Below, in pieces: positions 1 to 7,940 of a DNA stretch of 7,940 nt. Source of the DNA: a virus (lineage: Duplodnaviria > Heunggongvirae > Uroviricota > Caudoviricetes); the IMG/VR virus record IMGVR_UViG_2778261527_000012; one strand, written 5' to 3'. The stretch's first letter is position 1. Each line of letters starts with the position of its first letter. The notes under the pieces were generated by a model. The model worked only from the letters and a program-made list of their open reading frames with translations, made no database searches and was not told the DNA's origin. The position numbers and the translations under genes were made by a program.

Positions 1-543
1 ATCAAACGACGATGTGGTTTTCGTCCCCAAATCCGTACTGGATGCGCTGGCGCTGTGGGTATGCGATTTAATGCCGTCCTGTTCCTGAGACAATACGGCC
101 CGACCACTGGCAGGTTTGCCCTTAATCGTCCAGCCACGCATATCAGGGATCACGCCTGACGGATAAGCCGCTGCAAGTTTCGGGTATGCAGATTTGTCAA
201 AAGTCTGCCCCTGCATCAGGGCATAGCCAGACGGAACGGTATCTGATGGCCACGGGATTGGTGCACCGACTGGATAAAACTCTGCAGGAGGATGAGCCGA
301 GGTGTAAAGCTGCGCCCACGGCGACCAGTTTGCGTCGGTCGTATCCCGTCGTGAACGAATAAATGCCGGAGCATGAGCACCGCTTGTACCACTCCAGCCG
401 ATGAGTAACTCACCTTCGCCAACGGCTGTCATCCCTTTCAGGTGAATGATATTTCCATACGCTGTTGGATATCCGTTGTTATACACCTCGTATAAGTCAG
501 AACTTTGTCCGGTCGCCCGTGAGTCAGAATAAAGGCGCAAAAA
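1..543 (-). pseudogene. Side tail fibre protein fragment (lambda Stf / StfR-like), 5'-truncated; continues beyond window start
   Basis: The minus-strand frame is open from 543 to 1, so it is absent from the ORF track because it has no stop in the window. It translates to ...[157 protein letters not shown], which matches my recollection of the distal part of lambda-type side tail fibre proteins (PIPWPSD...[34 protein letters not shown]). An in-frame TGA at 546..544 lies immediately upstream and there is no RBS-preceded start (only TTG 540, GTG 486, ATG 432), whereas intact Stf proteins have several hundred residues N-terminal to this region. The 68-aa ORF 216..422 in the track is an alternate frame of this region. 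Confidence 0.6.
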
Positions 544-546
544 TCA

Positions 547-1335
547 TCACGCATATTCCTCCTCCCCGCCATGCATGATCTCCACCATGCGCTGCGTCAT
601 TCGGACAAATCCATTTTCAATAGCCTGCTGATAATCAATGATCACCAGCGCCGACTCCTCGAAAAGGCACTGAATTTCAGCGGGGGCATGAGCGTAATAG
701 TCCGCAATTCTGCTGAAATTAAACACTGTGTGACGTTCTGCCGCACACAGGAGGAATTTCTCAATATCAGGATCAAGGGACGCCGAACGTATCCGGCTGA
801 TCAGCTCCTGAGTTTTCGTATCGTCGTACAGTTCACTGATATCCGGTTTACCGCCCGACGGCTCATAAACAGGCGTATCAATTTTCGTCGTATACGGCTC
901 CTCCTCATTTCCTGTACCGGGCAAAACATCCGTCAACAGTTCATCAATTTCTGTCGGGATGAAGCCTGTCAGGGAGACATCAAAATCAGCATTGATTAGG
1001 TCCGACAGCTCCATCCGCAACAGATCTTCATCCCAGCCAGCATTCATCGGCAGGCGATTATCTGCCAGGCGGTACGCCTTTTTCTGCTCATCCGTCAGGC
1101 CAGACAGAACAATGACCGGAACAGAATCCATTTTGAGCATTTCAGCCGCCATAACACGACCGTGACCCGCAATAATTTCGCCCTTTTCGTCAATCAGCAC
1201 CGGATTAGTCCAGCCGAATTGCTTAATACTTTCTACCAGTTGTGCCACCTGCTCAGTACTGTGCGTCCTGGCATTGTGCGCATACGGTGACAATTCTTGT
1301 AATGGGCGATAGACTATCTTTAATTTCTCGCTCAT
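547..1335 (-). CDS. ParB-like nuclease domain protein (ParB N-terminal / sulfiredoxin-fold), 262 aa
   Basis: Complete ORF with ATG start and a weak AAGG Shine-Dalgarno 5 nt upstream. The N-terminal ~95 aa follow the ParB N-terminal domain pattern (YRPLQELSPYAHNAR ... IIAGHGRVMAA ... LADNRL; GxGR-type motif), followed by an acidic C-terminal half. The gene ends in tandem stops TGA-TGA (549..544). Such genes usually sit just upstream of terminase genes in lambdoid phages. Confidence 0.85.
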   Translation of the reverse strand: MSEKLKIVYRPLQELSPYAHNARTHSTEQVAQLVESIKQFGWTNPVLIDEKGEIIAGHGRVMAAEMLKMDSVPVIVLSGLTDEQKKAYRLADNRLPMNAGWDEDLLRMELSDLINADFDVSLTGFIPTEIDELLTDVLPGTGNEEEPYTTKIDTPVYEPSGGKPDISELYDDTKTQELISRIRSASLDPDIEKFLLCAAERHTVFNFSRIADYYAHAPAEIQCLFEESALVIIDYQQAIENGFVRMTQRMVEIMHGGEEEYA

Positions 1336-1349
1336 ACAGCCTTGCTTTA

Positions 1350-1386
1350 TGAATAAAACGCACCCCAGCAGCCAGTGCTACTGGGG
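1350..1386 (-). terminator. Possible intrinsic terminator between trkG and the ParB-like gene
   Basis: Minus-strand RNA would form CCCCAG-(12 nt)-CTGGGG followed by GCGTTTTATT. The stem is imperfect, the loop long and the T-tract interrupted, so this is weak. Confidence 0.25.
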
Positions 1387-1472
1387 GCGGAGGTGTTGCT
1401 GGTAAAGTTAGGTATTGGATCAATGAGTGAGTCAACATAATATTAAACTCACAATTATAAATCAGCCATATA

Positions 1473-2930
1473 TTAGGAGCGCCAAAAAAAACCTGAAAAC
1501 AATATAATAACAGGATAAATTTCAAGGCGACCAAGAATCATAGCTATGCACATTAAATATTTTGCAATGTCATTAAGCACTCCGAATGACGATGCAGTAG
1601 CCCCAAAACCTAATCCCATATTATTAATACATGCAGCCACTGTTGCAAATGATGTAAGAAAATCATATCCCATACCATTTAACACCAGTATAAAAAACAC
1701 CGTGAAGAGAGTATAAAGAAAAAAGAAACTCCATACAGACCTCATTACACGATCTGTAACTATCTTCCCTCCTACATTTACACTTAACAACGCTCTGGGA
1801 TGAGAAAGTTGATTTATCTCGTGTTTGCTTTGTTTGAAAAGTATAAGAAATCGAAGTGACTTAATTCCACCACAGGTTGAACCGATACATCCCCCAAAGA
1901 AACTTGACAACAGCAAAAACACTATCGTGTGCGTGGGCCAGTTTGCATAATCCTGCGTAGCTAAACCATTATCAGTGAGCATGGAGCTGGCAAGAAAAAA
2001 CGAATGAATAAAACTTCCATGCAAGTCATACATACCTATATGCCAGACCTGGAAAGAGGTAACAATGATCACCCCTAAGGCTATTAACAGAAAGAAACGA
2101 AGTTCAATATCTCTGATTAAAGGTTTTATCGTTTTTCTGCTAATAACAATATACCAAAGAGTGAAGTTGAAAGCCGATAGCAGGGAAAAAGAACCAGCCA
2201 CCAGCTCAACCAAATAGTTATTAAAATATCCGATACTCTCGCTATGAGTTGAGAAACCACCAAGCGAAACTGTGGAAATCCCGTGACAAATAGCATCAAA
2301 CAAAGACATTCCTGCAAGTCTATAACAGACAATACAAGCAATACCTAATAAAGAATAAGTTATCCACAGTGTCCGTGACGTATCGGCCAGGCGGGGAGTG
2401 AGTTTGTCATCCTTAAATGGCCCCGGCATTTCTGACTGATAAAGCTTTGCACCACCAATACCCAATAATGGCAATACAGCAACCGCCAGAACAATAACTC
2501 CTAAACCACCTATAAAATTTAACTGTGACCGATAGTACAAATATGCCCGAGGTAATGAACTAACATCATCAATTACAGTTGCTCCTGTTGTTGTTATTCC
2601 AGAAACCCCTTCAAACAGAGCATCAATGAACGTTAAATTAAGTTCTGAGTCAATCCATAAAGGGAATGCACTAATAACAGAAAACAAAATCCAAAACATT
2701 ACAATTATAATAAACCCATCACGGGTACGTAATTGAATGCCAGATTTCTTAGTTGTATACCACGCTCCGCCACCAATGCAAAAAAATATAACGAAAGTTA
2801 TAAAGAAAACGAACAGGCTTTTTTCTTTATAAAACAATGCTACAACCATTGGTGGCAACATTGAAAGACTATAGAGCCAAACCAAGAACCCACACATATG
2901 AGTAACAACTCTTACATGAGATGTATTCAT
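1473..2930 (-). CDS. trkG: TrkG/TrkH-family potassium uptake membrane protein (485 aa from MNTSHVRV)
   Basis: Long multi-span hydrophobic ORF with repeated glycine-rich selectivity-filter-like segments (GVSGITTTGATV, LGGFSTHS, GGCIGSTCGGIK, NMGLGFGATAS) typical of TrkH/KtrB transporters. It is near-identical to what I recall of E. coli Rac-prophage TrkG, which begins MNTSHVRVVTHMCGFLVW. The ORF track starts 6 codons earlier (ATG 2948), whose AAGGTGG motif is about 14 nt upstream; start choice is uncertain. The gene is visibly more AT-rich than its neighbours. Confidence 0.93.
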   Translation of the reverse strand: MNTSHVRVVTHMCGFLVWLYSLSMLPPMVVALFYKEKSLFVFFITFVIFFCIGGGAWYTTKKSGIQLRTRDGFIIIVMFWILFSVISAFPLWIDSELNLTFIDALFEGVSGITTTGATVIDDVSSLPRAYLYYRSQLNFIGGLGVIVLAVAVLPLLGIGGAKLYQSEMPGPFKDDKLTPRLADTSRTLWITYSLLGIACIVCYRLAGMSLFDAICHGISTVSLGGFSTHSESIGYFNNYLVELVAGSFSLLSAFNFTLWYIVISRKTIKPLIRDIELRFFLLIALGVIIVTSFQVWHIGMYDLHGSFIHSFFLASSMLTDNGLATQDYANWPTHTIVFLLLSSFFGGCIGSTCGGIKSLRFLILFKQSKHEINQLSHPRALLSVNVGGKIVTDRVMRSVWSFFFLYTLFTVFFILVLNGMGYDFLTSFATVAACINNMGLGFGATASSFGVLNDIAKYLMCIAMILGRLEIYPVIILFSGFFWRS

Positions 2931-3067
2931 ATCTAAATATTCTTTCAATTATAACCACCTTGCTGCAATATTATGATTATACTGTATAAAATTTAACTCC
3001 TCTTAGATCTTACTTCACTGTTCCTTATGAAACAATCATCAAAATGAATCATATTGTAGTTAAGATT

Positions 3068-3532
3068 TTACTTTAAACACTGCTCGGTTATGTATTGCTG
3101 AGCACCTTCAAGTTGGGCCTGCATCATTACCAGTCGTTCCCGGAGGGTGAAATAATCCCGTTCAGCGGTGTCTGCCAGTCGGGGGGAGGCTGCATTATCC
3201 ACGCCGGAGGCGGTGGTGGCTTCACGCACTGACTGACAGACTGCTTTGATGTGCAACCGACGACGACCAGCGGCAACATCATCACGCAGAGCATCATTTT
3301 CAGCTTTCGCATCAGCTAACTCCTTCGTGTATTTTGCATCGAGCGCAGCAACATCACGCTGACGCATCTGCATGTCAGTAATTGCCGCGTTCGCCAGCTT
3401 CAGTTCTCTGGCATTTTTGTCGCGCTGGGCTTTGTAGGTAATGGCGTTATCACGGTAATGATTAACAGCCCATGACAGGCAGACGATGATGCAGATAACC
3501 AGAGCGGAGATAATCGCGGTTACTCTGTTCAT
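3068..3532 (-). CDS. Rz: Rz i-spanin (inner-membrane spanin subunit), 154 aa
   Basis: [102 protein letters not shown]... is near-identical to lambda Rz as I recall it: N-terminal TM anchor followed by a coiled-coil periplasmic domain. The ATG at 3532..3530 overlaps the R stop in an ATGA arrangement. The track's GTG start at 3544 is an upstream extension. Confidence 0.92.
3127..3312 (-). CDS. Rz1: Rz1 o-spanin (outer-membrane lipoprotein spanin subunit), 61 aa, embedded in Rz in the +1 frame
   Basis: [57 protein letters not shown]... has a lipoprotein signal peptide with lipobox VVGC and a proline-rich mature part, near-identical to lambda Rz1. It lies entirely inside Rz in another frame, the classic embedded spanin arrangement. 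Confidence 0.9.
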
Positions 3533-4026
3533 TGCTGACCCCACAAACAGATTTCACGCTCAATCTCACGACGAGTCATGAGACCTTTCCATTGCTTACC
3601 GCCAGCATATGTCCAGCGACGTAGCTGATCACATGCGCCTTTGATATCGCCCTGGTTTATTTTGCGAAGAAGCGTCGATGTTCTGAAATTGCCAGCACCC
3701 ACGTTGTAAACGAATGAGTAAAGAGCGCCGCGCGTTGTTTCCGGTATATCGACTTTGATGTACGGGTTAATTTGTCTGGCGACAGTGGCAAGGTCTTTAT
3801 TCAAGAGTGTTTTGCATTCTGCTTTGGTATACGTTTTACCGAGCATGATGTCTTTTCCTGTATGCCCGTGACATACAGTCCATACACCAACAATATCTTT
3901 GTATGGTATGTAGCTGACACCTTCCAGACCATCGTTACCACTTGGGCCAGTGATTAACACTGATGCTATAGCAATTGCTCCGCCACCAATAGCAGCAGCA
4001 ACGGCTTTTCGTAATGATGGAGGCAT
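3529..4026 (-). CDS. R: SAR endolysin (phage-21 R-type lysozyme with N-terminal signal-arrest-release domain), 165 aa
   Basis: The N-terminus [27 protein letters not shown] is a Gly/Ala-rich weakly hydrophobic SAR segment, followed by a T4-lysozyme-like catalytic region ([24 protein letters not shown]; E-x8-D-x5-T pattern). The sequence matches my recollection of phage 21 R almost residue for residue. Its start overlaps the S stop (TAATG at 4028..4024). Confidence 0.93.
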
Positions 4027-4241
4027 TATTCACCTCTCGCAGCCTTGCGCTTATCTTCTTTAATCTTGAAATAAAGGTTTGTCAGGTACGTCAGCAGGCC
4101 AAATACCAGACTACCCAGCACACCGATTGCAGCCCACTGTGACGGAGTTACTCTATCGAGCAACTGTAAAAACCAGTAGCCAGCACTGCCTGCGGAGGTG
4201 CCGTAGGCAATGCCTGTTGAAATTTTGTCCATGGATTTCAT
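4026..4241 (-). CDS. S: Class II pinholin, phage-21 S-type, 71 aa, with dual-start motif (antiholin from M1, holin from M4)
   Basis: [71 protein letters not shown] has two TM segments and a charged C-terminus. The Met-Lys-Ser-Met dual start (ATG 4241 and ATG 4232) is as in S21. A GGAGGTGAGG Shine-Dalgarno lies 4-13 nt upstream of ATG 4241. The track's 90-aa version (start 4298) is a spurious upstream extension. Confidence 0.9.
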
Positions 4242-4340
4242 AGCCTCACCTCCGCACGGAACGGATGGCATAGTTATTATGTGTAGGCTTTCAGACACAT
4301 CAATCAGAGCCTTAATTGATATATATGCTGGAGACGATGC

Positions 4341-4367
4341 AATATAAAAAGCTCGCCGTAGCGAGCT
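4341..4367 (-). terminator. Rho-independent terminator downstream of the second TolA-like lipoprotein gene
   Basis: Minus-strand RNA: AGCUCGC-UACG-GCGAGCU (7-bp GC-rich stem, 4-nt loop) followed by UUUUUAUAUU. On the plus strand the hairpin is followed by TAATAAAAT, so it is effectively unidirectional for minus-strand transcripts. Confidence 0.6.
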
Positions 4368-4492
4368 AATAAAATGTATTTCTCTGATATTATGTTTATT
4401 TGTATTAGCTCAGACTTGACATCACAGGTTTCGTATATAGAACATCATCAAATCTGTCAGTTTGCTATGAATGAGATATAGTAATTGAAGAG

Positions 4493-4888
4493 CTAACCTC
4501 GCATGTCAAAGCCAGATTTCTGAAAATCTCTGTAGACTTCCGGATTGTTGAAGGCCGGAAATTTGGCTTTATGAGCTGCGGACTTTATCGCTTCGCAATA
4601 GGCTTTATCACCGTTACTGGTAGATATTTTTAACGCCGTGCCATCCTGAGAGAATTCCATATGCAACCTGCATTTTTTCCCTTTCCAGTTATGCGGCTCA
4701 TCAAGTTTGGCATTAATTGCAGCTCTGATTCCCCGCGCTTGCGCCCCCCATTCATCCTGATCATCCCAGCGTCCTGAACTGCAACTACCTGTAGCAGTAG
4801 TTTTGTGGCAATCTGAAGGGTGTAAAGGTGTGCATCCCGCAACAAAACCGACCCAAAAAGTCAACATAACGATTTTCTTTAATCCCAC
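4493..4888 (-). CDS. Lipoprotein with TolA C-terminal (domain III)-like domain, 131 aa (paralog 2, more divergent)
   Basis: GTG start preceded by a GAGGAG Shine-Dalgarno. Signal peptide MGLKKIVMLTFWVGFVAGC with lipobox VAG-C. The C-terminal ~80 aa (GIRAAINAKLDEPHNWKGKKCRLHMEFSQDGTALKISTSNGDKAYCEAIKSAAHKAKFPAFNNPEVYRDFQKSGFDM) align in pattern with the other paralog and with the C-terminus of TolA as I recall it, including the two conserved Cys. There is an extra Cys-rich linker (CTPLHPSDCHKTTATGSCSS). Confidence 0.7.
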   Translation of the reverse strand: MGLKKIVMLTFWVGFVAGCTPLHPSDCHKTTATGSCSSGRWDDQDEWGAQARGIRAAINAKLDEPHNWKGKKCRLHMEFSQDGTALKISTSNGDKAYCEAIKSAAHKAKFPAFNNPEVYRDFQKSGFDMRG

Positions 4889-5038
4889 TTCTTGCTCCTC
4901 AATCCATTAAAATCTCAGCAATAGTAGTTGTTACGTCCGCCACTGGCTCAGAGCTGACTATCCGCTAAATTTAGCTCAGTGCCGTAGCTGTGTCAGAACA
5001 AACCTAAGCCGAAACCGTTTATTACAAAACAATAAATA

Positions 5039-5467
5039 TCAGGGTTTAAAATCCAGCACCCCATTTTGAAATACTTTATATACTTCCGGCGAAGGGGGGG
5101 CAGGTATATCAGCATTCTTTATCGCATTCATCGCTTCACGACATAAATCGAGGTCTCCACTTTCTCTTTTAACCTCCAGTAGAAGGCCATTCGGGGCCAT
5201 ATGCATTCTCAGTGTACACTCTTTTCCTGAATACTTACTCGCATCCCCGAACTGTTTTTCGATGGCGCTCTTGATTTGATGGGCATACAGACGGATATCC
5301 TCACTAACATCAGAAGTACGTTCAGATGAACTCACATACTGTGTCTCTATTGCTTTATCGGAGTAATATGATGTACGGTCATGATAATTTGTCGATACAG
5401 CATCAGTGCACCCGATAATAATCCCACTAATAATCAACGTAAGAATTGATGCGCTACGAAAACCCAT
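5039..5467 (-). CDS. Lipoprotein with TolA C-terminal (domain III)-like domain, 142 aa (paralog 1)
   Basis: ATG start with a GAGGAAAA Shine-Dalgarno 5 nt upstream. Signal peptide MGFRSASILTLIISGIIIGC with lipobox IIG-C. The C-terminal domain YAHQIKSAIEKQFGDASKYSGKECTLRMHMAPNGLLLEVKRESGDLDLCREAMNAIKNADIPAPPSPEVYKVFQNGVLDFKP closely parallels the E. coli TolA C-terminus as I recall it (...YAGQIKSAIESKFYDASSYAGKTCTLRIKLAPDGMLLDIKPEGGDPALCQAALAAAKLAKIPKPPSQAVYEVFKNAPLDFKP). The identity is from memory and not computed. Confidence 0.8.
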   Translation of the reverse strand: MGFRSASILTLIISGIIIGCTDAVSTNYHDRTSYYSDKAIETQYVSSSERTSDVSEDIRLYAHQIKSAIEKQFGDASKYSGKECTLRMHMAPNGLLLEVKRESGDLDLCREAMNAIKNADIPAPPSPEVYKVFQNGVLDFKP

Positions 5468-5496
5468 TTTTCCTCACATATGTCATATAGTAAAGG

Positions 5497-5526
5497 ATTA
5501 TATATACCGTTGTTTTGGACGCTCAA
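5497..5526 (-). promoter_or_regulatory. Candidate sigma70 promoter for the TolA-like lipoprotein cassette
   Basis: Minus strand: TTGAGC (plus 5526..5521), an 18-nt spacer, then TATAAT (plus 5502..5497) within a TATATATAAT run, about 30 nt upstream of the lipoprotein-1 ATG. The 18-nt spacing is slightly long; alternative registers give 16-17 nt. Confidence 0.45.
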
Positions 5527-6055
5527 ACAGCGAATCAGATCAAATAAAACGCACATTTGTTAACATTTACACAAAGTCTGCGTGGGATATTCTGAAAGAA
5601 TATCCATAATGTGGAGAGAATCTATTGAAGTGCATGGTGCCGGGTGCCTCCCGGTGAACAAAATGTTCGTGATACCTGTCGGCGACAGAAAAGGTTAATG
5701 GTATCACCCCACCGCACAGGGGGATTCACCATGCAGGAGTTTTCTTAGCAAACTCACTGCGCGCCCGGCAACTCCCAACCACATAAAATGCGGAGTTTGT
5801 GGTATTTATGCATATAACTCGCAGGAATTATCTTAAAAAACTGATGTCGATCCGGATTAAAAAGAAGCAGGTCATCATCAGATGACTGGAAAAAAGGAAA
5901 ACAAAAAATACTCATCATACAGTTTTGATTGCAGGGATGAGCCTGCTATGCACAATATGCAGAATATAAGCAAGATAAAAATATGCAGGCATATTATTTC
6001 GGATTTTGTTATTAACACAACCTTTTTAATAATCATTTGGCATACAATAAACCAG

Positions 6056-6084
6056 CCCAAAAAGAACCGCCTAAACAGGCGGTT
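6056..6084 (-). terminator. Rho-independent terminator (minus-strand transcripts)
   Basis: Minus-strand RNA: AACCGCC-UGUUUA-GGCGGUU (7-bp stem) followed by CUUUUUGGG. The plus-strand reading lacks a T-tract. Confidence 0.6.
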
Positions 6085-6404
6085 GGTCAATACAAAGGAT
6101 GCTTCGTCTTTATTATAGTAATCTGAGGCGTCGGGTGTCTTGTATCAGACAACATATTGTCCCGCTAAACAGCGAATTACAAACCACCCTGCAATGATCT
6201 CTCATCTCATTTTATATGAGTTGACGACATCAGGATAACGCATCATCAGCCCCTGCCAAGAAATATCAAAACTCCCGCCAGCAATGTGTTATCACAATAT
6301 TGTAAAAAAAACACAGCACCGAAACTATAACTGGTCTCTGTTATAATTTGGAGCAGAAAGACCAGTTGCCCAACTAGCAGCATTCTCCCCTGCTTTCCTG
6401 ACGT

Positions 6405-6431
6405 AAAAAAACCGCATTAAGCGGTTTTTTT
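6405..6431. terminator. Symmetric bidirectional intrinsic terminator about 80 nt downstream of the Q stop (candidate tR'-type terminator)
   Basis: AAAAAAACCGC-ATTAA-GCGGTTTTTTT: a CCGC/GCGG stem flanked by A7 and T7, so either strand gives a hairpin followed by a 7-U tract. Confidence 0.65.
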
Positions 6432-6511
6432 ACGATGTCCATGTCTGCAATCCGCCTCGCGATACAGCTTTGCGAAGCATAGCAAAATTGAAGCAGTTTA
6501 TACGTAAGAAA

Positions 6512-7054
6512 TCAAGCCATTTTCTCAGCAAATGATTCACGCATGGGAATATATAGGGCATACTCAGCAACAGCTAACCAATTAGCAATCCGTTTTTCGC
6601 ATGTGCTAAAACACCACTCTGGGTGTGCATCATTTAGCAATTCAGCCATTTTGCGCTTAGTCATCCCCCGCCCTTCATAGCGTTGCCGGAGAATGCAAAT
6701 CAATCCTGGATGCTCTGCCAGCACCTCACTTATGACTCGATCAATACATAACGCCTCTGCATCAGTACAATGCGCCAGCCAGCTCTTTTGCTTGCCGTTG
6801 ATCATCTCTCGCAAAAACGCTTCCAGCTCAGCTTTCTCTATTCCCGCTTTTTTCATTCTGCGCAGGGCTTCATTAATGGCTGTTTTCGTCAGTTTTTTGG
6901 ATGCCAACAACTGATTGAACATATTCCCTGACCTGCCACCGCCAATATACGACCAGCGCCCCCACATACGTAGTTTTCCCTGAATCCAGACACTTTCCAG
7001 CGTGGTGAGGCGAAGGTGTTCTCCGCTTTTTCCTGTATTCGTTGGGTAAATCAT
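6512..7054 (-). CDS. Late-gene antitermination protein Q-like, 180 aa
   Basis: It is the last gene of the nin-type operon and directly precedes the terminator and lysis region, which is the canonical Q position in lambdoid genomes. Size is right and it has a C-terminal Cys cluster (HCTDAEALC ... WCFSTCEKR) compatible with a Zn-binding element. Its start overlaps the upstream gene's stop (ATGA at 7054..7051). The call rests on position plus general resemblance, not a verified alignment; which Q family (21, 82 or lambda type) is undetermined. Confidence 0.65.
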   Translation of the reverse strand: MIYPTNTGKSGEHLRLTTLESVWIQGKLRMWGRWSYIGGGRSGNMFNQLLASKKLTKTAINEALRRMKKAGIEKAELEAFLREMINGKQKSWLAHCTDAEALCIDRVISEVLAEHPGLICILRQRYEGRGMTKRKMAELLNDAHPEWCFSTCEKRIANWLAVAEYALYIPMRESFAEKMA

Positions 7055-7341
7055 AAATGACCTTTCTTTCTCCAGATTTCTTGTGTGCGAAAAACCCCTT
7101 CAGCATGCATCAGGCGCAGTTCTTCTTTGGTGTAATCGCTGGTTTTTACCCGCCCGTCGATTAGATCGTGGCATGAGCTACAGGCTATCGCCGCCTGCAT
7201 ATCGTGTGGTTTTGTCGCTGTTCCGCACGTCCCCGCCAGCCTGTAATGCGCCAGCACAGAGGTTTCGGGATTGTGATTGCAGTAGCCAGGGATTCTGATC
7301 TGGCACATCTGGCCTTTAGCCGCTTTACGTAAATTCACCAT
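7051..7341 (-). CDS. DUF1364 family protein (YbcO-like, putative Zn-binding nuclease), 96 aa
   Basis: MVNLRKAAKGQMCQIRIPGYCNHNPETSVLAHYRLAGTCGTATKPHDMQAAIACSSCHDLIDGR... closely resembles E. coli DLP12 YbcO as I recall it (CQVRIPGVCNGNPETSVLAH ... IACSACHD), with conserved Cys/His positions. It is translationally coupled on both sides (TAATG with the upstream gene, ATGA with Q). Confidence 0.8.
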   Translation of the reverse strand: MVNLRKAAKGQMCQIRIPGYCNHNPETSVLAHYRLAGTCGTATKPHDMQAAIACSSCHDLIDGRVKTSDYTKEELRLMHAEGVFRTQEIWRKKGHL

Positions 7342-7940
7342 TACGCAAACTCCAGTAGTTGTGCGGCCACATTTTCAACTTCCTCCTGAGAGGAGAATTT
7401 ACGAAACAGAATCCAGTTCCACAGCACATTCAGTACAGATTTATAAACCTGCTGAAACTCGACTTCGTCCATATTCGCAAAAGCGATGGATTTTGCCCGA
7501 CGCCCACGGCTACCGTCCGGATAAATATGCTCGGTGTAAAATCCGGCCTGAATGGTTACCCACTCGCGGAAAGCCTCAAACGACTTTAGCAACGCCGTAT
7601 CCCGGGTTCTACGAGTCGCAACGGTGTTAAGGTATTGCTCTGCGGCATCACTCAGGGCTGGCGTGTGTTCCCGACCAACTGATTCGCACAGGTAATCAAC
7701 GAAACCAGACAGCAGTTCTCGTTCGCGAGGCGTGATCGCCCCACCGACCGGAGTCCAGTAATCGAATCCCAGTTGCAGGAGTTTGAAAAAACGCTTGTGG
7801 AATGCGTAGTTACGCACACGCTTAAAGTCTGCGTGTATCCACTCACCTATTTTGATTTGATGCAGAAAATCGCAACTCTCCGGCGTCGCCGGGAGAAGTA
7901 AACCAGAAGAAGTTTGTTTGACCAGTTGTATATGCGCCAT
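7341..7940 (-). CDS. Lambdoid nin-region protein, probably DUF1367 family (YdfU-like), at least 199 aa
   Basis: Long ORF with typical E. coli codon usage whose stop overlaps the start of the DUF1364 gene. The ATG is formed by the last three bases of the window, so the true start may lie beyond the window. Family assignment is from recollection of gene order in Qin/Rac-type prophages, not from a verified alignment. Confidence 0.55.
   Translation of the reverse strand: MAHIQLVKQTSSGLLLPATPESCDFLHQIKIGEWIHADFKRVRNYAFHKRFFKLLQLGFDYWTPVGGAITPRERELLSGFVDYLCESVGREHTPALSDAAEQYLNTVATRRTRDTALLKSFEAFREWVTIQAGFYTEHIYPDGSRGRRAKSIAFANMDEVEFQQVYKSVLNVLWNWILFRKFSSQEEVENVAAQLLEFA

Follow-up and report, generated by a model that had tools for sequence, protein, structure and literature searches.

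TrkG of a Rac prophage variant: an AT-rich K+ transporter gene that is very probably foreign, moron-like cargo between the lysis and packaging modules

How did a gene for a potassium transporter come to lie in the late region of a temperate phage element, and is it a foreign passenger there? The question is raised by a 7,940-nt stretch of viral DNA (Caudoviricetes; IMG/VR record IMGVR_UViG_2778261527_000012), called the window hereafter, in which all long open reading frames (ORFs) lie on the minus strand, with transcription running from position 7940 towards position 1. Our results show that the gene is trkG, which encodes an accessory Trk K+ transporter, and that it is very probably a foreign, single-gene, moron-like cargo of the Rac prophage, carried between the lysis and packaging modules. 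Parts of this picture are already known: the low GC content of trkG, its location in Rac, its horizontal origin and its partial repression by H-NS have been published, and the Prokaryotic Genome Annotation Pipeline (PGAP) already labels every gene of the window in matching genomes.

Family assignments in the window were made with Pfam and NCBIfam profiles. We found an intact TrkH-family ORF on the minus strand, which spans 1473-2948 when it is read from a TTG codon, the extent given in the initial annotation, and 1473-2930 when it is read from the conventional ATG, giving a protein of 485 aa. The product matched PF02386 (TrkH) with an E value of 7e-144 and 480 bits against a cut-off of 27, covering positions 3-500 of the 502 in the profile, and it scored 414 bits with TIGR00933 against a cut-off of 331, indicating a full-length member of the family. 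It aligned with K-12 TrkG without gaps and with 482 of 485 residues identical (99.2% nucleotide identity for the gene), the substitutions separating the two proteins being P209S, S330N and C458Y. The TrkH equivalog model NF008020 gave 451.9 bits, and because this falls far under its cut-off of 866 bits, the gene is the TrkG paralogue and not TrkH. The family matches, the low TrkH score and the near identity to the K-12 protein together identify the gene as trkG, which confirms its earlier assignment to the TrkG/TrkH family; the identical gene is called trkG by PGAP in hundreds of genomes.

The protein also carries four pore-loop glycine motifs and a GGCxGSTCGGIK intramembrane loop. GITTTGAT, SLGGFS, TDNGLA and NNMGLGFG, together with GGCIGSTCGGIK, were all present, and none of them varied among the 13 aligned sequences of the clade; these motifs are assigned to the pore loops on the basis of the TrkH structures. 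The solved TrkH structures 4j9u/3pjz matched TrkG at E 1e-121. Translation may start at the TTG at 2948 instead of the annotated ATG at 2930: the TTG is preceded by AAGGTGG 6 nt upstream and would give a protein of 491 aa, the ATG has no obvious Shine-Dalgarno sequence, and many homologues with 70-76% identity are annotated six residues longer (491 aa), with an extension that is conserved in length and not in sequence.

In composition, trkG is set apart from the genes around it. Its GC content is 37.8% (41.6, 39.5 and 32.3% at the first, second and third codon positions, GC1 to GC3), compared with values of 42-52% among the other nine genes and 46.7% for the window without 1336-3067. Compared with its nine neighbours by chi-square test, trkG differed strongly in base composition (37.8% versus 48% GC, p = 1.2e-11) and in GC3 (32% versus 48% for the pooled neighbours, p = 1.6e-9). 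No other gene of the window had as low a codon adaptation index (CAI) by either of two references: trkG scored 0.174 with Sharp-Li weights and 0.547 in a cross-check against chromosomal genes on the flanks of the ET729 Rac; the Q-like gene came close (0.184 and 0.576). A likelihood fit with two change points over 500-4300 delimited an AT-rich block (36.2% GC, versus 49.6% in its flanks) at 1403-3096, which begins near the Rz stop codon (3068) and extends up to the edge of a hairpin downstream of trkG. On either side, Rz (52% GC) and ynaK (49% GC) are backbone-like. These sharp limits, together with the lowest CAI, give trkG the composition distinct from its flanks that is characteristic of a moron, and they bear out the initial annotation, which had described the gene as markedly more AT-rich than the flanking phage genes.

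The spacers on the two sides of trkG differ from each other. The upstream spacer (2931-3067, minus strand, 137 nt) has 25.5% GC, shows an exact TATAAT hexamer twice on its coding strand (2976-2981 and 2948-2953) and is 100% identical to that of K-12. The downstream spacer (1336-1472) is AT-rich in part only: 1387-1472 (86 nt) has 34.9% GC and a TATAAT at 1454-1459, while 1336-1386 has 52.9% GC and holds a GC-rich hairpin. Thus the short AT-rich intergenic regions with TATAAT-like elements that had been described on both sides of the gene were found in full upstream and in part downstream. The hexamers around trkG are present and prove nothing alone, since the whole window holds nine where 6.4 +/- 2.6 are expected, a number that 40 of 200 shuffled sequences reached.

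We next consider how trkG might be expressed. Besides the two hexamers, the upstream region holds one promoter-like site of 9/12, and a generic promoter scan of the window gave no excess over shuffled sequence (17 sites versus 16.2 expected). Downstream, a terminator-like hairpin (1386-1363) with a stem of 10-13 GC-rich base pairs and a GCGUUUUAU tail (1353-1386 in all, minus strand) lies 87 nt past the trkG stop codon; its folding energy is -25.2 kcal/mol (z = -4.0), and none of 200 shuffled sequences folded as well. A terminator scan between Rz and trkG gave no terminator-like site. A trkG promoter fragment of K-12 BW25113 was active in a luciferase reporter, and trkG transcription is lowered but not silenced by H-NS and StpA (PMC9898762). 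What we say about the trkG promoter is therefore founded on this published reporter work and not on the motifs. In K-12, TrkG takes up K+ in a Na+-dependent manner and also some Na+, uses TrkA in common with TrkH and can replace TrkH (PMC9898762).

To ask where such a gene could have come from, we compared TrkG with its homologues. A search of 5.8 billion proteins returned a graded series of Enterobacterales homologues (87, 79, 77, 76 ... 61% identity), the nearest outside E. coli being from E. albertii (87%, partial), E. fergusonii (79%) and Citrobacter (77%). In three other genera of Enterobacterales, TrkG-clade genes were single chromosomal genes in unrelated, non-prophage neighbourhoods with a GC content like that of their flanks. 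The GC content of the gene and of its host or flanks was 56.7 versus 57.3% in Enterobacter, 53.2 versus 56.3% in Serratia and 44.8 versus 42.7% in Xenorhabdus, and clade members with 63-70% identity to TrkG, from Serratia and Enterobacter, had 53-57% GC with a GC3 of 69-72%. The E. fergusonii gene (locus 8001-9458) lies in a locally AT-rich region of about 43% GC beside two porin genes.

The window was then related to Rac. Window 1082-3512 matched E. coli K-12 NC_000913.3 at 1423200-1425630 (rzpR'-rzoR-trkG-ynaK') with 99.1% identity and no gaps, so that synteny with Rac holds over this whole interval. A second match joined the left end of the window (1-308) to an internal segment in the C-terminal third of stfR (93.8%), and window 1-499 also matched a truncated "phage tail protein" pseudogene region in strains ET729 and APEC_AN-25. 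The window itself contains neither end of the element. In ET729, a block with 99.5% identity is located between ttcA/intR/xisR/recT and tfaR/pinR/uspF, which is the Rac attachment site, and the same ttcA/intR to pinR/uspF location was found in APEC_AN-25 and C2 (block 99.5-100% identical). Because the strains with such a block carry it at the Rac attachment site, we read the element of the window as Rac itself, and as more than a mere relative.

Strain C2 (NZ_CP010117.1) is 100% identical to window 493-7940 and has the same gene order (ninB-like, ybcO, Q-like, two TolA-C genes, S, R, Rz, trkG, ParB). Both C2 and the record "Escherichia phage vB_EcoS-683R6" (ON470595.1; 683R6 below) carry a near-complete Rac that goes on into terminase, portal, capsid and tail genes, the overall order being int-xis-ralR-recT-recE-...-immunity-replication-...-ninB-like-ybcO-Q-like-(TolA-C or tRNAs)-S-R-Rz-trkG-ParB-terminase-portal-capsid-tail. 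The sequence recorded as 683R6 is not a virion genome but a prophage region flanked by host genes (ttcA, dbpA, zntB), and in the C2 copy the large terminase gene is interrupted by a stop codon. Rac content is known to vary widely between strains, with trkG and recE the best conserved genes (PMC5700373); full-sized Rac-like prophages are mentioned in the Jobling letter (PMC5917428), and the K-12 Rac is incomplete compared with other strains according to a review (PMC6379469). We also observed that the C2 Rac (locus 28262-35574) has, in the interval from the replication genes to the ninB-like gene, some 7 kb of cargo of a metabolic type, comprising a BCCT transporter, DUF2254, a LysR regulator, a gamma-glutamylcyclotransferase, an MFS transporter and DUF1971. 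This block is also present in APEC_AN-25; in ET729, a fragment of recE is fused to a truncated MFS gene.

Alignment of K-12 to 683R6 showed that K-12 kept a 2,431-bp island around trkG, with deletions of ~8.2 kb and ~11.6 kb on either side. The ~8.2-kb deletion begins within ydaW, ends near codon 7 of Rz and removed the ydaW 3' end and the ninB-like, ybcO, Q-like, S and R genes; consequently K-12 rzpR is a pseudogene without a start, while Rz is intact in the window. The ~11.6-kb deletion runs from inside ynaK to ydaY and removed terminase, portal, capsid and tail tube genes; the first ~85 codons of ynaK are retained, with the breakpoint at window 1082. The statement in the initial annotation that K-12 Rac has only remnants of the lysis genes was therefore correct. 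Its further suggestion, that the locus is a less decayed relative of Rac, held in one respect, as the late-regulation and lysis module is better preserved in the window; the structural module is more decayed, and the element appears to be Rac itself.

The loss on the packaging side can be read from a junction in the window. About 50 nt past the stop codon of ynaK, sequence of the next gene in C2 gives way to DNA from the tail-fibre side (...CGTATAA / GTCAGAAC..., at 493-499, with ~3 nt common to both sides). The junction joins a tail-fibre-region remnant of Rac (1-496, minus strand) to the beginning (~20 codons) of the gene that comes after ynaK where Rac is complete, and we found no packaging, head or tail genes (terminase, portal, capsid) in the window. 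The exact junction was absent from the collection of complete E. coli genomes, none of which carried the entire window in colinear form, and its 35-nt form was absent from the GTDB species representatives. APEC_AN-25 runs 40 nt beyond ~499 and rejoins at window 915, and ET729 runs into lom/J fragments. A recombination hot spot at ~499, where the sequence to the left is common to these two strains, was considered and rejected, as the end points of the strains differ. With three end points in three strains, the deletions of the morphogenesis genes appear to be independent.

On the other side of this scar stands ynaK (547-1335, minus strand), which encodes a full-length protein of 262 aa with a ParB/Srx N-terminal domain (Pfam ParB_N, E 9e-7) and is an intact coding sequence in C2 (100% identical). 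Homologues of ynaK lie at the left genome end beside the terminase in phages c5, X29 and R20L, and we read ynaK as the first gene of the packaging-side module. This position of ynaK-type ParB genes, together with a corresponding cargo slot in the Rac-family prophage Rac-SA53 (see below), places trkG at the joint between the lysis and packaging modules. The location first proposed for trkG, between the spanin genes and the packaging region, is accordingly right for the genes that border it, with Rz on one side and ynaK on the other; the packaging genes themselves are missing from the window.

Among 5,426 complete E. coli genomes, 1,550 carried trkG, almost always once, and 1,512 records had it at at least 99% identity. 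It was still joined to S-R-Rz in 691 genomes, and at least 80% of the whole window was found in one place in 427, so the state of Rac seen here, trkG with a lysis cassette, is an ordinary and common variant. In the same collection, trkG was located at 15 places on plasmid-labelled records. A record named "Salmonella phage SPF_0923" (ON032529.1) encodes a TrkG that is 99.8% identical. Compared with K-12, the gene shows nine synonymous and three non-synonymous differences (omega ~0.10), while synonymous sites were saturated against the E. fergusonii copy, where dN/dS was not computable. Since trkG survives independent deletions at at least 99% identity and with an omega of ~0.1, it is probably retained by selection for the host.

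Taken together, these results suggest the following history. The gene very probably came from outside both phage and host, as it lies ~10-13 GC points below both and has a very low GC3, and its capture was probably single and old. With its own AT-rich upstream region and hairpin terminator, it could be expressed from the repressed prophage through its own promoter, its transcription presumably ending at the hairpin, and TrkG together with host TrkA would take up K+ (and Na+) in the Na+-dependent manner published for the near-identical K-12 protein. Because no terminator-like site was found between Rz and trkG, Q-modified late transcription in a complete Rac might read S-R-Rz through trkG into the packaging genes. 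The Rac variant of the window kept the Q-like gene and the phage-21-type lysis cassette and lost its morphogenesis genes by the deletion after ynaK, K-12 lost different pieces on both sides of trkG, and in each case trkG was retained, probably through selection for the host.

Several points weigh against a foreign-cargo origin or limit what can be said of it. No near-identical, low-GC donor was found in the search of 5.8 billion proteins, where no homologue paired high identity with 38% GC. We also looked in the 5,426 genomes for an Rz/ynaK empty site without trkG, using window 547-1400 joined to 3001-3900 as the query and requiring one place that covers at least 80% of it, and found none; the insertion event and its limits are therefore deduced from composition only. 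The omega estimate rests on 12 substitutions only, chance alone would produce TATAAT hexamers in DNA this rich in AT, the promoter of the window is a prediction from its sequence, and the function of TrkG in the strain of the window is assumed from its 99% identity to K-12 TrkG. With the missing empty site kept in mind, the sharp GC step and the host-like GC of the homologues agree with the separate acquisition that the initial annotation had proposed from composition.

Could the low GC of trkG instead reflect the amino acids of a hydrophobic membrane protein (Phe, Ile, Leu, Tyr, Asn and Lys codons) or local drift within the prophage, and not a foreign origin? GC1 and GC2 of trkG are also low, which is partly due to amino-acid composition, and the window has other AT-rich parts (the intergenic region 4299-4492 with 33% GC and 5800-6100 with about 34%). 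However, the shift is significant at third codon positions as well, the compositional step matches the gene boundaries, and E. coli trkH has 53% GC versus 38% for trkG (PMC9898762, which also gives the Rac location and cites Schloesser et al. 1991). The proteins of the same clade from Serratia and Enterobacter are likewise encoded at 53-57% GC, and because TrkG-clade homologues have the GC of their hosts, amino-acid composition cannot explain 38%. We consider this explanation highly improbable and already largely refuted. It is a better, though still rather doubtful, proposition that trkG is an old, integral part of the Rac-type late region that was acquired once, possibly with ynaK and the Rz end, so that no acquisition event can be recovered. 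The lack of an empty site and the near invariance of trkG (at least 99%) over ~1,500 genomes would fit such a history; moreover, homology to other lambdoid phages that share S-R-Rz stops at 3143, inside Rz and Rz1, and not at the Rz stop codon, and E. albertii has a diverged allele (87% protein identity) beside prophage-type genes. Against it, the compositional step is limited to trkG and its upstream spacer and spares ynaK and Rz, and a Rac-family prophage at the same attachment site has different cargo in the trkG slot. This proposal concerns the timing of the acquisition and not its nature, and it is compatible with trkG being foreign cargo.

Two further proposals concern what trkG does for a phage. 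The window might derive from a functional, inducible temperate phage with trkG as a lysogenic-conversion gene, given its intact ORFs (Q-like, S, R, Rz and Rz1) and given that GenBank "phage" records such as vB_EcoS-683R6 have the same block followed by terminase, portal, capsid and tail genes. The window, however, has its deletion scar 50 nt after ynaK followed by a tail-fibre remnant, and lacks packaging, head and tail genes, and, as described above, 683R6 is a prophage region with host flanks and the C2 terminase gene is interrupted; we give this origin almost no credence. In complete Rac phages, trkG could also be more than a lysogenic-conversion gene, namely one that is co-transcribed late and benefits the phage itself. 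Late co-transcription is suggested by its position directly downstream of a pinholin/SAR-endolysin (signal-anchor-release endolysin) cassette with no intervening terminator-like site, but we regard the whole proposal as a long shot. If it were true, the K+/Na+ flux that TrkG carries could help to keep up cytoplasmic K+ and membrane potential up to the moment of pinholin triggering, or it could instead change how susceptible the cell is to superinfecting phages, and a benefit to the phage would explain why the slot between lysis and packaging carries trkG. The reading that we prefer, trkG as foreign cargo of Rac kept by selection for the host, has three by-products. It comes with an exact account of what K-12 Rac lost around trkG (a 2.4-kb island between deletions of ~8.2 and ~11.6 kb), with the observation that strains shed their morphogenesis genes by independent deletions and kept trkG every time, and with the finding that TrkG-clade genes are native chromosomal genes of host composition in several other Enterobacterales.

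The genes upstream of trkG form a lysis cassette of the phage-21 type, as judged by profile matches. In order on the minus strand, these are holin S (4026-4241; essD-type, 71 aa; Pfam Phage_holin_2_1, E 5e-35), which carries an MKSM dual-start motif, lysozyme R (3529-4026; rrrD-type; Phage_lysozyme, E 2e-45), whose hydrophobic N-terminus suggests a SAR endolysin, and the i-spanin Rz (3068-3532; intact, 154 aa; Phage_lysis, E 4e-53), with the o-spanin lipoprotein Rz1 embedded in it in another reading frame (3127-3312; Rz1, E 2e-19). All four are intact ORFs that match their own families. S, R (rrrD) and Rz are annotated as intact coding sequences in the 100% identical genome, where Rz1 is unannotated. 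The initial annotation had placed trkG directly downstream of an apparently intact S-R-Rz/Rz1 cassette and Q. The cassette is as described; the assignment of Q is weaker, since the gene is a DUF1133 member with a borderline Phage_antitermQ match (6512-7054, minus strand), and is separated from S, 2.2 kb downstream of it, by two TolA-C genes. It is called "antitermination protein Q" in phage records and is absent from K-12 Rac. Further upstream are ybcO/DUF1364 (7051-7341) and a DUF1367 (ninB-like) gene that is cut off by the window end (7341-7940), both on the minus strand and assigned by Pfam and NCBIfam. A tRNA scan of the window found zero tRNA genes.

Between the Q-like gene and the TolA-C ORFs lies a stretch of ~1 kb without long ORFs. 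At 6141-6053 (minus strand), ~370 nt downstream of the Q-like gene, a promoter-like AAGACA-18-TATAAT (10/12) is followed ~30 nt later by a hairpin, AACCGCCTGTTTAGGCGGTT, with a T-run, a predicted arrangement that resembles the lambdoid pR'/tR' (a late promoter with its Q-antiterminated terminator). The same stretch contains a full-length match to the small RNA (sRNA) family STnc100 in Rfam (5578-5764, minus strand; 86.6 bits versus a gathering score of 47). STnc100 is a prophage-associated sRNA family that is related to PasD according to a 2026 preprint. The two TolA-C ORFs on the minus strand (5039-5467, Pfam TolA, E 2e-23; 4493-4888, E 1e-14) encode only the TolA C-terminal domain, preceded by lipoprotein-like signals (...IIGC, ...VAGC); a terminator-like hairpin lies downstream of them at 4367-4350. 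They look like another cargo unit, because the slot holds two tRNA genes in their place in 683R6 and a pertussis-like toxin in Rac-SA53. One may speculate that the TolA-C proteins are decoys for TolA-dependent colicins or filamentous phages; our literature search on the function of such ORFs found no paper.

Finally, we compared the locus with known systems. TrkH, which belongs to the E. coli core genome and is represented by the V. parahaemolyticus structures 3PJZ and 4J9U, is like TrkG in fold family and in its four-pore-loop architecture, while its identity to TrkG of the window is only ~41%. The trkG gene of K-12 Rac (b1363) has the order, orientation, upstream region and flanks in common with the window over 1082-3512. 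In contrast, K-12 Rac is without the start of Rz, both TolA-C genes, R, S and the Q-like, ybcO and ninB-like genes, and holds only about one third of ynaK, but it retains ydaY, a tape-measure fragment, lomR and a full stfR, which are lost from the copy in the window. Rac-SA53 (KU052037.1), a Rac-family prophage at ttcA, is without trkG and carries LT-IIa enterotoxin genes between the endolysin and the terminase; it is in its Q-holin slot that the pertussis-like toxin is found. The closest parallel in kind is with the morons of lambdoid phages, reportedly described by Juhala et al. and Hendrix et al. in 2000. Like these, trkG is a single gene of deviant composition with its own promoter-like and terminator-like signals at a module boundary of the late operon. 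A classical moron is missing from between its two neighbour genes in a closely related phage, whereas no trkG-free sister with the same flanks was found, and the cargo in this case is a housekeeping-type transporter, not a virulence or exclusion factor.

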